Below, one piece after another: positions 37,336 to 53,898 of a stretch of DNA of 64,000 nucleotides. Under the pieces are notes generated by a model. That model ran no database searches and was not told the origin of the DNA. It saw only the letters and a program-made list of their open reading frames with translations. The number at the start of each line of letters is the position of its first letter. The stretch's first letter is position 1. The stretch lies in IMG/VR virus record IMGVR_UViG_3300045988_116984. One strand, written 5' to 3'. Position numbers and translations under genes: made by a program. The stretch comes from a virus.

Positions 37336-37689
37336 ATGGCAGTTGGATTTAGCTTTCAAAAAGCAAAACGAGAGAAAATTTGGGTAAAACTTCTGCTTAA
37401 TGGCCCGTCAGGTAGCGGCAAAACGTATACAGCATTGCGTCTAGCTACTGGTATGTTGAGCAAGGTTGGCGGAGCTGGTATTGCCGCTATTGACACGGAG
37501 AATGGACGTATTCGTTATTATGCGAATGAATTTGACTTCTTCGACTTACAGCTTGGCGAACCATATACGTCTGAATCGTATATCGAAGCAATCAATGCGG
37601 CAGTTGACAATGGATTTAAAGTGCTTATCATTGATAGTTTGAGCCATGAATGGAAATGGTTGAATGAAGTACATGATAAGATGCCCGGT
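37336..37689 (+). CDS. AAA/RecA-like phage ATPase, exon 1
   Basis: Walker A GPSGSGKT and Walker B VLIIDSLSHEW. The track ORF reads 4 extra codons into the intron before its stop. Confidence 0.75.
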
Positions 37690-38093
37690 TGTAATGTGGC
37701 GTAAACACATTCACGGCCCGCTATATTGGTAACAATATGGTGTTTCCTCACGAATATGCTGGAACGCCCTTAGAGTTCACATGCTAAAGAGGAATCTTGA
37801 GATAGATAAACTTAAATGCTATAAAAAGTTGTGAAATTGGGAAATCAGCAGGGAATGGATATAACAGTCCTGCCCTCAACGACTATGGTGTTGGAACCAG
37901 TAGAATTAAGCGATTCAAAATGTGAGGACTCCTTATGAGTAAAAACAATTTAACTTCTATGACAAAAGACGAAGTTCAAGAAGTTATTATCTCATTAGGA
38001 TGAAGATATAGTCTGCACTTACGCGAAAGCGTGAGAAAAGCATATAAACTATGCTCTTTATAGAAATAGCGAATCTATAAAGTAACACAATGG
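37690..38093 (+). mobile_element. ORF-less intervening sequence (probable group I intron) in the ATPase gene
   Basis: 404 nt with no ORF over 22 aa separate ...HDKMPG from NSFTNWGKLKPRH... The upstream exon ends in T, the insert ends in G, and both exons are in frame. Confidence 0.55.
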
Positions 38094-38666
38094 AACTCAT
38101 TTACGAACTGGGGCAAGCTTAAACCGCGTCATGCGGCTTTGATGGAAAAAATTCTTCAGTCACCAATTCATATTATTGCTACTGCTCGTGGTAAAGATGA
38201 TTATGTGATGGAAGATAAGAACGGTAAACAGATTCCTAAAAAGGTTGGTGTAGGTTCACAGCAAGAGAAAGATATCGAATACAACTACACTGTAACGTTT
38301 AATATCGACCAAGAAACGCATGTGGCATCAGTGGCAAAGGATAATACACATCTTTTTGAGGGACGATATGATAAACTCACGGAAAAAGATGGTTCTAATC
38401 TGATTGATTGGGCAACTTCTGGCGAGGGAGAAATGCCGACAGAACCTGTTTCAAAGCCTACATTTGCAGCACCGAGCGATTCTAATGATTTGGATAGCAA
38501 GGTTATTGAGTGTAAGGATTTGTTCGCTTCTAGAATGGATGAGGGTATCTCAAAGGATTTCTTGTATGACATTGTAAAGAAGCACAATGCTGGCAATAAA
38601 AACTTCATGCAGATTAAAGATATTGAAGTATTGAATACTATTATTAAGGAAATTAAAGAGGTTTAA
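38094..38666 (+). CDS. AAA/RecA-like phage ATPase, exon 2
   Basis: The frame is open from 38070 with no start or RBS. NSFTNWGKLKPRHAALMEKILQSPIHIIATARGK continues the ATPase fold. Confidence 0.75.
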   Translation, partial: NSFTNWGKLKPRHAALMEKILQSPIHIIATARGKDDYVMEDKNGKQIPKKVGVGSQQEKDIEYNYTVTFNIDQETHVASVAKDNTHLFEGRYDKLTEKDGSNLIDWATSGEGEMPTEPVSKPTFAAPSDSNDLDSKVIECKDLFASRMDEGISKDFLYDIVKKHNAGNKNFMQIKDIEVLNTIIKEIKEV

Positions 38667-51070: not shown

Positions 51071-51100
51071 TTGACACAACGGCCTAGTATATGGTATAAT
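51071..51100 (+). promoter_or_regulatory. sigma-A-type promoter
   Basis: TTGACA (51071-76), 18 bp, TGgTATAAT. Confidence 0.7.
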
Positions 51101-51126: not shown

Positions 51127-51549
51127 ATGATTGATAAGTTTGATGGTGAATTTTCTTTTCTTAGCAACTTTTATGAATCGCCTGTGAAGTATAGAGGGCA
51201 TATCTTTGGAAGTGCTGAGGCGGCTTTTCAGGCTCAAAAGTGTCAGGACACATCATTAATCAAAAGCTTTTGCGGACTATCTCCATCAGAATCCAAGCGT
51301 AAAGGGCGGCATGTAACATTACGCAAGGATTGGGAAGAAGTTAAAGATGGTATTATGTATGACATTGTTTTTTCAAAGTTCTCTCAAAATGAGACGTTGA
51401 AGTACAAACTGCTCTCTACTGGAAGTGAGGAGCTAGTAGAGGGGAACTGGTGGAAAGATACATATTGGGGTGTCTGTAATGGTGTTGGTGAAAATAAATT
51501 AGGGCATATTCTCATGGAAGTTCGCGAAAAGCTATCTCAATCCAGTTGA
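51127..51549 (+). CDS. NADAR (YbiA/DUF1768) domain protein
   Basis: FLSNFY, AEAAFQAQK, DTYWGV...GENKLGHILMEVR. ATG 51127 after GAGGGAGG. Confidence 0.8.
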   Translation: MIDKFDGEFSFLSNFYESPVKYRGHIFGSAEAAFQAQKCQDTSLIKSFCGLSPSESKRKGRHVTLRKDWEEVKDGIMYDIVFSKFSQNETLKYKLLSTGSEELVEGNWWKDTYWGVCNGVGENKLGHILMEVREKLSQSS

Positions 51550-51575
51550 CAAAAAGTGTGCTTGTGTGATATAAT
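51546..51575 (+). promoter_or_regulatory. sigma-A-type promoter upstream of the first tRNA
   Basis: TTGACA (51546-51), 18 bp, TGaTATAAT. Confidence 0.65.
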
Positions 51576-52350: not shown

Positions 52351-52427
52351 GCGCCGATAACTCAATCGGAAAGAGTACCGTTCCTCTAAAGCGGGAGTTG
52401 GGGGTTCGAGTCCCTCTCGGCGCGCCA
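52351..52427 (+). tRNA. tRNA-Arg (anticodon TCT) with C at position 33, CCA encoded
   Basis: Acceptor GCGCCGA/TCGGCGC, G73, D stem ACTC/GAGT, anticodon stem CCGTT/AGCGG, loop CCTCTAA, T arm GGGGG-TTCGAGT-CCCTC. Confidence 0.8.
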
Positions 52428-52735
52428 TTGAGATTTTCTCAAACGTAGGCTTAGAAGCAGCCATCGTATAATGAGTGAGTGATATTCCGTATGTAACCAA
52501 GGTGGGTTTCTCTGTTCACCGCCAGAACTGATAGGGAGAGCCGATTCAGAAGAAAACAGAGCTTAGGCAAGTCAGTGAGGGACAACTACACGATAAGCCC
52601 ATTATATAAGTGTAGTTGTGAAGCATTGGAGCTTGTACAGGAACGGTTACAAGGGCGGGATGGGACATAAATGCCCAATATTCCTTTGGCGTAACAGCAC
52701 ATGAGAAAATCTCTTTCTTACTTTGTGTAAAACAT
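52428..52735 (+). ncRNA. candidate structured non-coding RNA of unknown class between two tRNAs
   Basis: About 308 nt with no plausible ORF and visibly higher GC than the flanks. Terminal 11-nt complementary pair 52430-40/52703-13, 10-bp hairpin 52582-91/52610-19, 6-bp hairpin 52632-37/52648-53. Confidence 0.4.
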
Positions 52736-52821
52736 GCTGGTGTGGTGAAATTGGAACACACATGAAATTTAAGCTTTCACGGTTAATAACCATGCGGGTT
52801 CAAGTCCCGCCACCAGCACCA
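52736..52821 (+). tRNA. tRNA-Leu (anticodon TAA), type II long variable arm, CCA encoded
   Basis: Acceptor GCTGGTG/CACCAGC, A73, anticodon stem TGAAA/TTTCA, loop TTTAAGC, variable arm GGTT-AAT-AACC, T arm GCGGG-TTCAAGT-CCCGC. Confidence 0.9.
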
Positions 52822-53148: not shown

Positions 53149-53177
53149 TTGACAAAATCGAATATATATGATATAAT
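53149..53177 (+). promoter_or_regulatory. sigma-A-type promoter driving the tRNA-Gln/Gly pair
   Basis: TTGACA (53149-54), 17 bp, TGaTATAAT. A second TTGACA lies at 53134. Confidence 0.7.
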
Positions 53178-53188
53178 ATATACAATAA

Positions 53189-53264
53189 TTCCTCGTAGTC
53201 GAATGGTACAGACAGCAGACTTTGACTCTGCGCGTTGCTGGTTCAAGTCCAGCCGAGGAAGCCA
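53189..53264 (+). tRNA. tRNA-Gln (anticodon TTG), CCA encoded
   Basis: U1-A72 acceptor TTCCTCG/CGAGGAA, G73, anticodon stem GCAGA/TCTGC, loop CTTTGAC, T arm GCTGG-TTCAAGT-CCAGC. Confidence 0.9.
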
Positions 53265-53446: not shown

Positions 53447-53872
53447 ATGGAAGAATTTATTTGCCCCGTATGTGGACATCATACAAAATCTGGCGAAGAT
53501 TACGAAGCGATACTACAAACAATGAATGTAATTGGCAGAGCTGCTGGTTATCCAGAGTACAAAGCATACTGTGAAAATTGTGAAAATGTCTTTCCGATTG
53601 TAGATGATTTGTACGAAATTGAGGCAATTACAAACCTCGATGGAGAACAAAAAAAAGACGAAAAAGCACAAAGTAGAATTGGCCGTAAAGTAATTATCGG
53701 AGAACTCGAAGTTGGGAAGCGCTCTGTATTGCCGTATTGGCCTGATTTCAAGAAATATCTCCATACAAGCACCATTATGAGTATTATTTCAACGTCTGAT
53801 GCTAGCAGAATTACGTTTGAAACAATGAACTCTGTGTACTCCCTCGTTCGTGTTGATAGAGAAAATGCTTGA
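53447..53872 (+). CDS. hypothetical protein with N-terminal zinc ribbon
   Basis: CPVCGH...x29...CENCEN. Confidence 0.65.
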   Translation: MEEFICPVCGHHTKSGEDYEAILQTMNVIGRAAGYPEYKAYCENCENVFPIVDDLYEIEAITNLDGEQKKDEKAQSRIGRKVIIGELEVGKRSVLPYWPDFKKYLHTSTIMSIISTSDASRITFETMNSVYSLVRVDRENA

Positions 53873-53898
53873 CAAATGATATATGCTTGTGGTATAAT
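53869..53898 (+). promoter_or_regulatory. sigma-A-type promoter
   Basis: TTGACA (53869-74), 18 bp, TGgTATAAT. Confidence 0.7.

Follow-up and report, generated by a model that had tools for sequence, protein, structure and literature searches.

The record IMGVR_UViG_3300045988_116984 of the IMG/VR virus collection is considered here as a stretch of 64,000 nucleotides (the window), in which a tRNA-Arg gene and a tRNA-Leu gene, both identified by ARAGORN and Rfam, are separated by 308 nt (52428-52735). Within this gap, window 52430-52713 on the + strand is predicted to encode a structured non-coding RNA of ~285 nt. Both ends of this RNA resemble parts of the GTPase-associated centre (GAC) of 23S ribosomal RNA (rRNA), that is, helices H42-H44, and it very probably belongs to a large and unannotated family of phage RNAs found in tRNA arrays, whose conserved and covarying structure is built around such a GAC-replica core. 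Positions such as 1051-1108 are given in E. coli 23S rRNA numbering throughout, and P1 denotes the helix that closes the RNA. The locus is laid out as follows.

52351-52427, + strand: tRNA-Arg(UCU), anticodon tct, with encoded CCA
52430-52441, + strand: 5' strand of P1, GAGAUUUUCUCA, taking the place of the 5' strand of H42
52443-52467, + strand: replica of H43 (1057-1081), ACG UA GGCU UAGAAGC AGCC AU CGU, from the match to the large-subunit (LSU) rRNA model
52468-52476, + strand: AUAAUGAGU, equivalent of 1082-1090, with G1087 and the bulged A1088 kept
52477-52684, + strand: subfamily-specific domain within H44, between U1090 and G1091, from covariation in the subfamily
52485-90/52655-60, 52492-98/52645-51, 52501-07/52518-23 and 52528-31/52546-49, + strand: helices of the inserted domain
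52567-74/52627-36 and 52582-91/52610-19, + strand: further helices of the inserted domain, the latter being its central hairpin
52685-52701, + strand: UUUG linker, then GCGUAACAGCAC-A (G1091-C1102 plus A1103) at 52689-52701
52702-52713, + strand: 3' strand of P1, UGAGAAAAUCUC, in the place of the 3' strand of H42 and directly after 1103, as in rRNA
52714-52735, + strand: 3' spacer of 22 nt, running to the RNase P site of tRNA-Leu
52736-52821, + strand: tRNA-Leu(UAA), anticodon taa

A first-pass annotation, made from the letters of the window, had proposed that the gap holds a novel structured RNA and no credible open reading frame (ORF). The sole overlapping ORF of more than 60 amino acids (aa) is indeed antisense (52546..52761, 71 aa) and starts within the tRNA-Leu gene, and six-frame translation of the gap reveals no coding remnant. 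The GC enrichment that had been noticed is borne out, with values of 0.45-0.51 in 150-nt windows across the gap against ~0.30-0.40 in the genes on either side. The complementary pair at the ends is real and matches at 100%, but its length is 12 nt rather than 11 (52430-41 GAGATTTTCTCA and 52702-13 TGAGAAAATCTC); by our own estimate the chance expectation for a 12-nt terminal pair is ~0.01-0.03 in 308 nt. P1 starts 2 nt after tRNA-Arg and ends 22 nt before tRNA-Leu, co-oriented with both, which places the RNA within the tRNA array. The minimum free energy of the fold is -86.3 kcal/mol, with z-scores against shuffles of -2.4 (+ strand) and -2.2 (- strand), values that are modest taken alone.

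In Rfam searches the likeness to rRNA surfaced only when the 308 nt were searched alone. cmscan then aligned 52443-52488 with positions 1098-1143 of the LSU_rRNA_bacteria model (27.5 bits, E 8.6e-7), with all pairs standard. The aligned segment comprises H43 and the beginning of H44 of the GAC (E. coli 1057 onward), the domain that binds uL11 and thiostrepton. When the 308 nt were compared with plasmids by blastn at low stringency, over 100 records spanning many phyla aligned, in every case to the same 40 nt of the query (18-57); the one plasmid match that was examined is a complete 23S gene, matching at ~1092-1134, and blastn against a Clostridia 23S likewise gave a match confined to positions 1092-1134. 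The remainder of the 308 nt has no LSU rRNA match with either cmscan or blastn. Set against the gathering score of 50 for an LSU rRNA gene (RF02541), the 27.5 bits extend over 46 nt and are not collinear beyond one domain; the sub-threshold match reflects the copying of a single rRNA domain and does not mark an rRNA gene.

The copy is close at the level of individual nucleotides. In the H43 replica the A1067 loop is the same as in rRNA and U1060 is kept, with A at position 1061, whilst the A at 52442 is the equivalent of position 1056. The 1082-1086 pair is A-U in the window and U-A in rRNA, and covaries between U-A, C-G and A-U across the family. The assignment of 52473-88 to H44 by cmscan is probably wrong; the true 1095 loop lies at 52691-96, where the hexaloop keeps G1093, U1094, A1095 and A1098; position 1101 is A, as it is throughout the family. 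H44 is split between U1090 and G1091 by 212 nt (52477-52688, UUUG linker included). The H43/H44 copy is enclosed by P1, whose 12 bp sit at the place of H42 and join bases 5' of 1056 with bases 3' of 1103. Since this closing stem starts exactly where H42 starts in rRNA, the whole H42/H43/H44 three-way junction appears to be reproduced, together with an insert. The pairs of H43, 1082-1086 and H44 are all present, as are the nucleotides A1067, G1093, U1094, A1095, A1098, U1060 and A1088 by which a GAC was recognised, and across the family these features are conserved or covary. The structured, non-tRNA RNA of the first-pass annotation stands, but that annotation had missed that the 5' part and the 3' end reproduce H43/H44 and that the terminal repeat occupies H42's place.

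Relatives were collected from IMG/VR by means of an exact 17-mer from H43, GGCTTAGAAGCAGCCAT, so that invariance inside the 17-mer is by construction. The 17-mer occurs in at least 120 IMG/VR contigs, and since the 23S similarity of the matched contigs never exceeds ~50 nt, none is an rRNA gene (designations such as L001, L019 and L082 are labels of the contigs and loci compared). Among the matches listed there are 98 distinct sequences, which have a common architecture. The 5' half consists of the 5' stem strand, RRG-GU-D-GGCUUAGAAGCAGCC-AU-CYY (H43), UAAAGAGU (1082-1090) and an insert of 45-350 nt, and the 3' half of YUUUG, GCGUAAYAGCAC (G1091-C1102, the H44 loop), A and the 3' stem strand. 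In 92 of the 98 distinct sequences GCGUAAYAGCAC (with up to three mismatches) is found 74-379 nt downstream, counted from G1062, and is followed by the complement of the 5' leader, pairing of P1 having been used as a tie-breaker in locating the motif. In the window, the H43 module at 52443-52476 contains GGCUUAGAAGCAGCC-AU-CGU AUAAUGAGU, and the 3' motif at 52684-52701 is CUUUG GCGUAACAGCAC A, 241 nt downstream of G1062. P1-to-P1 lengths range from 105 to 430 nt, with a median of ~205; a short member is the L145 copy, at ~120 nt.

Covariation was analysed in an alignment of 60 distinct cores in which a linker was substituted for the insert. Standard pairs fill 91.6% of cells, compared with 71.5% in shuffles, and the covariation score is 0.532 against 0.152 in shuffles, with none of 500 shuffles reaching it; when the partners are slid by 1-3 columns the score is at most 0.15. 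Both sides change in all 10 of the scored P1 pairs, and the pairs 1057-1081, 1058-1080 and 1082-1086 covary as well. A covariance model made from phage cores only scores genuine 23S GACs at 49-59 bits and has no match in sister phages without the interval. Model R1 misplaces the 3' half when the insert is long, and the coordinates that it gives for long members are unreliable. Homologues and covariation, named in the first-pass annotation as ways of checking its candidate, are therefore both found; its reading as a novel RNA is right in that the RNA is new to Rfam, but had overlooked the very large family of phage RNAs to which it belongs.

These data bear directly on whether the gap might hold a captured host 23S rRNA fragment, decaying as junk DNA. 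Similarity to LSU rRNA is certainly present, and genuine rRNA pieces do occur in phage records such as that of Paenibacillus phage Pd_22F. However, the only pieces to match are those of H43/H44, which lie 212 nt apart, and nothing else of the 308 nt matches LSU; 98 distinct phage sequences have the same split architecture, in which H42 is replaced by a covarying, non-rRNA stem, and compensatory changes maintain the pairs. We regard a decaying fragment as very improbable. The Pd_22F match itself (L153, MZ092003.1, ~83.6-84.0 kb) was rejected as a member of the family, being genuine 23S that is collinear well beyond the GAC. This stretch lies inside a 1.7-kb unannotated gap and is either DNA of the host within the phage genome or an artefact of assembly.

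Whilst the core is shared, the insert domains are wholly different between subfamilies. That of the window is common to L046 and to the group of L082, L083, L154, L155 and L156. P1, H43, the GGUG/CACC stem, the central hairpin and two long-range helices are all retained in the consensus fold of this subfamily, and both sides change in 20 of the 64 consensus pairs (three independent lineages). Three hairpins had been picked out from the window sequence in the first-pass annotation. The 10-bp hairpin at 52582-91/52610-19 is exact here and covaries among relatives, and the GGTG/CACC hairpin is part of a kept, covarying stem (52501-07/52518-23). The window also has the CTTGTA/TACAAG hairpin, but relatives do not conserve it, and its 3' arm is engaged instead in a kept long-range helix (GUAACC 52493-98 / GGUUAC 52645-50). 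Elsewhere in the family, several members carry an extra hairpin in the 3' strand of H43, directly after AGCCAU, which marks a second permissive insertion site, and one viral contig, L077, has two GAC-replica RNAs (5138 and 5456), 318 nt apart, each adjoining a tRNA; L073, L076, L090, L103, L119, L125, L133 and L148 are listed with L077 for these two-copy and extra-hairpin observations.

The diversity of the inserts, which are entirely different between subfamilies and vary from 45 to 350 nt, together with the conserved loops and covarying helices that the insert of the window subfamily possesses in its own right, is what would be expected if the insert were the part that acts, differently in each phage, and the GAC core were a handle that recruits uL11 for folding or stabilising or provides a compact tertiary cap. 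We think this rather unlikely, as the GAC core is the only part common to all members, with the exposed A1067 and A1095 loops included, and the inserts of the shortest members measure just 45 nt.

The association with tRNA genes extends beyond the window. An upstream tRNA was identified in 22 cases, and in 21 of these its 3' end lies within 7 nt of the start of P1; in 25 of 41 cases P1 ends no more than 22 nt from the next tRNA. All 12 loci scanned with Rfam lie inside tRNA arrays, some of them also with transfer-messenger RNA (tmRNA), GOLLD, HEARO or group I introns. L066 (8505-8666 and 8864-9133) has a GAC-replica RNA and a phage tmRNA in one tRNA array, with the tmRNA ~200 nt downstream; in L053 (685-1176) a tRNA array is common to GOLLD and a GAC-replica RNA, 3.4 kb apart, and in L101 (11348-11572) to HEARO and a GAC-replica RNA. 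The core is also present, and unannotated, in the cultured phages Cronobacter GAP32, Pectobacterium CBB and Serratia BF, in several Erwinia pEa_SNUABM phages and Yersinia fHe-Yen9-03/04, in Xanthomonas XbC2, XaC1 and XacN1, in Aeromonas 4_4572, and in Pseudomonas pf16, Astolliot, Milchi and UNO-G1W1. The GAP32 copy lies at 289.5 kb, and that of pf16 is found between tRNA-Asn and tRNA-Pro.

Because many members are flush with tRNAs on both sides, and P1 is placed like an acceptor-type helix, it could be argued that the element acts in cis only, as a processing or spacer element that helps maturation or balances expression of the neighbouring tRNAs. Such a role gives no reason for the rRNA GAC to be copied nucleotide for nucleotide in more than 98 phages, however, and many members lack an adjoining tRNA on one side, with the annotated flanking features of the GAP32 copy being protein-coding genes. 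In sister phages, moreover, these two tRNAs are processed with no more than 5 nt between them. A purely cis-acting element is accordingly improbable in our view.

The history of the copy in the window can be followed in some detail. By its DnaE-type polymerase the phage groups with relatives of large Clostridia and Bacillus phages, the best match being a human faecal phage record. IMG/VR has one near-identical contig. Assemblies from the human gut contain the phage very often; proteins neighbouring the interval are found in 358 and 586 indexed blocks, and the contigs are up to 118 kb long. The interval is present at >=98.7% identity in every window-type contig fetched by identical neighbouring proteins. 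Among GenBank phages, blastn of the locus found no nucleotide relative and megablast of 15 kb gave tRNA-Gly matches only; exact 18-22-mers of the insert domain were found in IMG/VR in the same phage only. A single-nucleotide polymorphism, 52433 A>G, retains the P1 pair, as G-U, on the + strand only.

In sister phages, whose flanking proteins are 77-95% identical, tRNA-Arg and tRNA-Leu are 5 nt apart (CCA-AATGT-GCTGG), and the sister L019 has a window-type tRNA-Arg yet is without the interval (CCA-AATAT-GCTGG). From this spacing, the difference is a clean piece of 303 nt, 52428-52730, which is without a target-site duplication. The first-pass annotation, in assigning an RNA to this tRNA-Arg/tRNA-Leu site, had missed its absence from the closest sister phages. 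In distant relatives of the L082 type, with neighbour proteins 31-35%, 65% and 81% identical to those of the window, the gene order is as in the window (up105, up97, tRNA-Arg, RNA, tRNA-Leu, dn96), and an RNA 69% identical to the window's occupies the same tRNA-Arg/tRNA-Leu site. The presence of the RNA there indicates that it is old at this site and that the close sister phages lost it.

A polymorphism of presence and absence with clean ends and no target duplication might also betray a small mobile element inserted between the tRNAs, be it a MITE, a PATE of the IS200/IS605 type or the relic of a TnpB guide RNA (omega RNA); the two repeat arms are small palindromes in themselves, the minus strand ends TCAA, and in the near-identical contig a TnpB element is found 450 nt away (downstream). 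Against this, a scan of 185,579 reference genomes with the left end found no real copy, the one 20-mer match being to unrelated palindromes, and scans of JGI metagenomes that excluded the phage's own flank found 0 copies in any other context. The interval aligns with the TnpB element of L001 no better than shuffles do, and, with the RNA at the same site in distant relatives, it is the sister phages that deleted it. Having no copies in other contexts and no full-length-element similarity, the interval is highly unlikely to be a PATE, an omega RNA or another such element.

Three further observations were made in passing. Candidatus Electronema sp. PJ (L030 7780-7905, NZ_JBLWEO010000083.1) has an operator-like tandem palindrome, CGTTTGAGAnnnTCTCAAACG, one copy of which matches the first 20 nt of the RNA and is unrelated to it. 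In L001 (1557-2837; IMGVR_UViG_7000000695_000007, 99.9% identical to the window) an element of 1281 nt replaces the 5' half of tRNA-Gln(ttg), window 53189-53226. It encodes a TnpB/IS605 OrfB-like protein with a CxxC...CxxC zinc-finger motif near the C-terminus, followed by ~135 nt of omega-RNA-like non-coding sequence, and ends GTCAA directly against the 3' half of tRNA-Gln, a gene that is intact in the window. Finally, the window-type contig L025 (ENA ERZ28582736) has the RNA and lacks the 96-aa gene downstream of tRNA-Leu; its alignment ends at window 52782, where a different 116-aa gene follows, pointing to the tRNA region as a recombination hotspot.

Comparison with known RNA families leaves the gap without a name. 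A scan with Rfam, suggested in the first-pass annotation, finds no described family at threshold in the gap (Rfam 15), and a search of 601 nt at the gathering threshold and at E <= 10 also finds nothing there. With the 308 nt and the 601 nt as queries, the covariance models of group I and II introns, GOLLD, ROOL, HEARO and ribosomal protein (r-protein) leaders have no match at E <= 10; the same is true of tmRNA and RNase P, and ARAGORN finds no tmRNA, in agreement with the first-pass annotation, in which the RNA could not be matched to either of these or to a tRNA intron. Introns of groups I and II were also rejected because the gap boundaries are without U/omega-G (group I) and GUGYG/AY (group II). 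No Rfam family was found at the GAC-like sites of the 12 family loci scanned. A full-text search across 8 million papers and preprints found no description of such an RNA, and a survey of huge phages does not mention rRNA-like elements. Lacking both an Rfam 15 family and any description found in that search, the phage GAC-replica RNAs appear to constitute a new family.

The tRNA-like GC content of the gap raises the question of whether it consists of degenerate tRNA genes left by decay of the tRNA cluster; a 9-mer within it resembles the 5' end of tRNA-Arg, and ARAGORN at 70% thresholds makes a weak 'tRNA-Val' call at 52461-52535. That call overlaps H43/H44, however, and at default or 80% thresholds ARAGORN finds nothing, nor does the Rfam tRNA model have a match at E <= 10. 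The 11/12 complementarity of the gap to the tRNA-Arg anticodon arm is missing from L082-type relatives. Decayed tRNA genes are hardly credible as the origin of the gap. The complementarity in question is between a hairpin loop at 52636-52647 and the anticodon arm at 52377-52388; as it is not conserved in L082-type relatives, pairing between the two is treated as chance.

Several features of the surroundings deserve brief mention. Ten neighbouring proteins, among them those of the four nearest ORFs, were compared with Pfam and PHROGs, and none was assigned an RNA- or ribosome-related function. A group I intron (Rfam, 59.5 bits, above the gathering score) lies at window 37681-38035 (+), between the ORFs 37336-37704 and 38139-38666. 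Position 33 of tRNA-Arg(UCU) (52384) is C in 20 of 20 window-type contigs, giving the anticodon loop CCUCUAA, whilst the near-universal U33 is found in the tRNA-Arg of L019 and of L082-type relatives. Variants of the anticodon loop have been proposed to let tRNAs escape defences that target them (PMC10264068), and C33 may be one such. The tRNA region also has four sigma-70 promoters on the + strand (51071-51100, 51546-51575, 53149-53177 and 53869-53898) that match the consensus at 12 of 12 positions (TTGACA-N17/18-TATAAT), each with a TG extension. Since there is no such promoter directly upstream of tRNA-Arg, the RNA is probably transcribed from 51546, through two small ORFs.

What might a free copy of the GAC do? 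The isolated 58-nt rRNA domain (1051-1108) folds independently, binds uL11 tightly and, with uL11, binds thiostrepton, and the GAC is where uL10-bL12, translational GTPases and RelA act. Since the isolated rRNA domain binds uL11 and thiopeptides, the phage RNA is predicted to do likewise. We propose that the RNA would be transcribed within the tRNA array and that its ends would be set by the enzymes that trim tRNAs, as the first-pass annotation had also suggested, 3' processing of tRNA-Arg producing the 5' end and 5' processing of tRNA-Leu the 3' end of the precursor piece. The released RNA would then work in trans as a free GAC copy and capture a GAC ligand. Our first choice of ligand would be uL11, with or without uL10-bL12; capture of uL11 is proposed to lower its occupancy on ribosomes and so weaken RelA activation and the stringent response. 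The second choice would be a GAC-directed toxin or antibiotic, for which the RNA would serve as a decoy. The variable domain may add stability or a lineage-specific function. Mutational work from the Draper laboratory reportedly found the exposed A1067 and A1095 loops dispensable for binding of the uL11 C-domain; conservation of loops that are not needed for this suggests that the partner reads the factor-binding face. One GAC-directed toxin, Tre23, ADP-ribosylates H44 at 1095-1098 (PMC8661411).

Taking this explanation as a whole, from a GAC-replica RNA in the tRNA array and its liberation by tRNA processing to capture of a GAC ligand in trans, we lean cautiously in its favour. The decoy mechanism in particular, with free GAC capturing a GAC ligand, is put forward tentatively. 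More tentative still is the suggestion that a replica of part of the ribosome is used in trans either to trap uL11 and the stalk, blunting the stringent response, or to soak up GAC-directed effectors from immune systems or competitors.

A number of points weigh against the explanation. Both the ligand and the benefit to the phage are ones that we infer. In rRNA, G1071 and C1072 form two base triples with H44, and the insertion inside H44, combined with the family-wide change U1101>A, could alter the fold. A decoy would be a weak defence against a catalytic toxin. Close sister phages are without the RNA, so that it must be dispensable in at least some hosts. Low, tRNA-like diversity among the window-type contigs (7 segregating sites in 286 nt across 20 contigs) speaks for conservation of this copy, but it is due in part to linkage, the contigs having been selected through identity of neighbouring proteins. 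Finally, the GAP32 copy reads GAGU where the enterobacterial host rRNA, in the 1089-1090 region, presumably reads GAAA, and this mismatch at 1089-1090 argues against tight co-evolution with the host rRNA sequence.

How the phage RNA compares with known systems can be stated quite precisely. It has in common with the bacterial 23S GAC the three-way junction, the H43 UAGAAGC loop (A1067), U1060, the bulged A1088, the 1082-1086 pair, the H44 loop G-U-A-R-N-A with A1095 and A1098, and a closing stem that begins one nucleotide after 1103. It differs in being a free-standing gene of 105-430 nt, encoded by phages within tRNA arrays, rather than part of a 2.9-kb rRNA; in having a plain helix of free sequence for H42, with no kink-turn 42; in the 45-350-nt domain between 1090 and 1091; and in having A rather than U at 1101 and a conserved YUUUG linker before G1091. 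Copying of an rRNA protein-binding site by a non-ribosomal RNA is also seen in r-protein leaders (the L10 leader RF00557, the L1 site on the L11 operon mRNA, and the S8, S15 and L20 sites). Those leaders, however, are cis-acting 5' untranslated regions of host mRNAs, and loose copies, that regulate translation of the downstream gene, whereas the phage RNA is a near-exact copy flanked by tRNAs, without a downstream r-protein gene and with no match to an Rfam leader.

Other stable RNAs are known from phage tRNA clusters. The tRNA cluster of phage T4 gives rise to species 1 and 2 (RNA C and D), stable non-tRNA RNAs of ~120-140 nt and of unknown function that are released from the tRNA precursor transcript. 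Like the RNA described here they are non-tRNA RNAs within a phage tRNA gene cluster, but they are shorter than that of the window; we know of no report of rRNA mimicry for them, and no T4-type record is found among the GAC-core matches in phage records. GOLLD, ROOL and HEARO are similar in being large structured RNAs often found beside phage tRNAs, GOLLD and HEARO even sharing arrays with members of the present family, but their models find no match at GAC-like sites and to our knowledge they contain no rRNA-derived module. Phage tRNAs are themselves thought to replace tRNAs hit by host anticodon nucleases (PMC10264068). Like these, the GAC replicas are translation-related RNA genes in phage tRNA arrays, with a conceivable part in countering attacks on the translation apparatus. 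A tRNA, however, can substitute for the damaged host molecule, whereas a free GAC cannot enter the ribosome and could only bind or titrate. The nearest concepts are thus the r-protein leaders that mimic rRNA and the stable RNAs from the T4 cluster, neither of which is a free-standing replica of a ribosomal functional centre.

If the explanation proposed here is true, a very common and unannotated phage gene would be an RNA copy of the ribosome's factor-binding platform, and would represent the first viral 'ribosome-part decoy' RNA, a new class of counter-defence or host-takeover RNA distributed from phages of gut Clostridia to jumbo phages of enterobacteria and Xanthomonas. In practical terms, annotation would need to be corrected at loci that are now shown as empty gaps, spurious 'hypothetical proteins' or partial 23S matches, and a natural, self-folding RNA scaffold of 100-400 nt, able to accept large insertions at one defined site, would become available. 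The family would also offer a testable handle on roles of phage tRNA arrays beyond codon supply, with GAP32, CBB, XacN1, pf16 and Aeromonas 4_4572 as cultured carriers, and would point to a possible new host-phage conflict over uL11, the stalk, RelA, GAC-directed toxins and thiopeptides.

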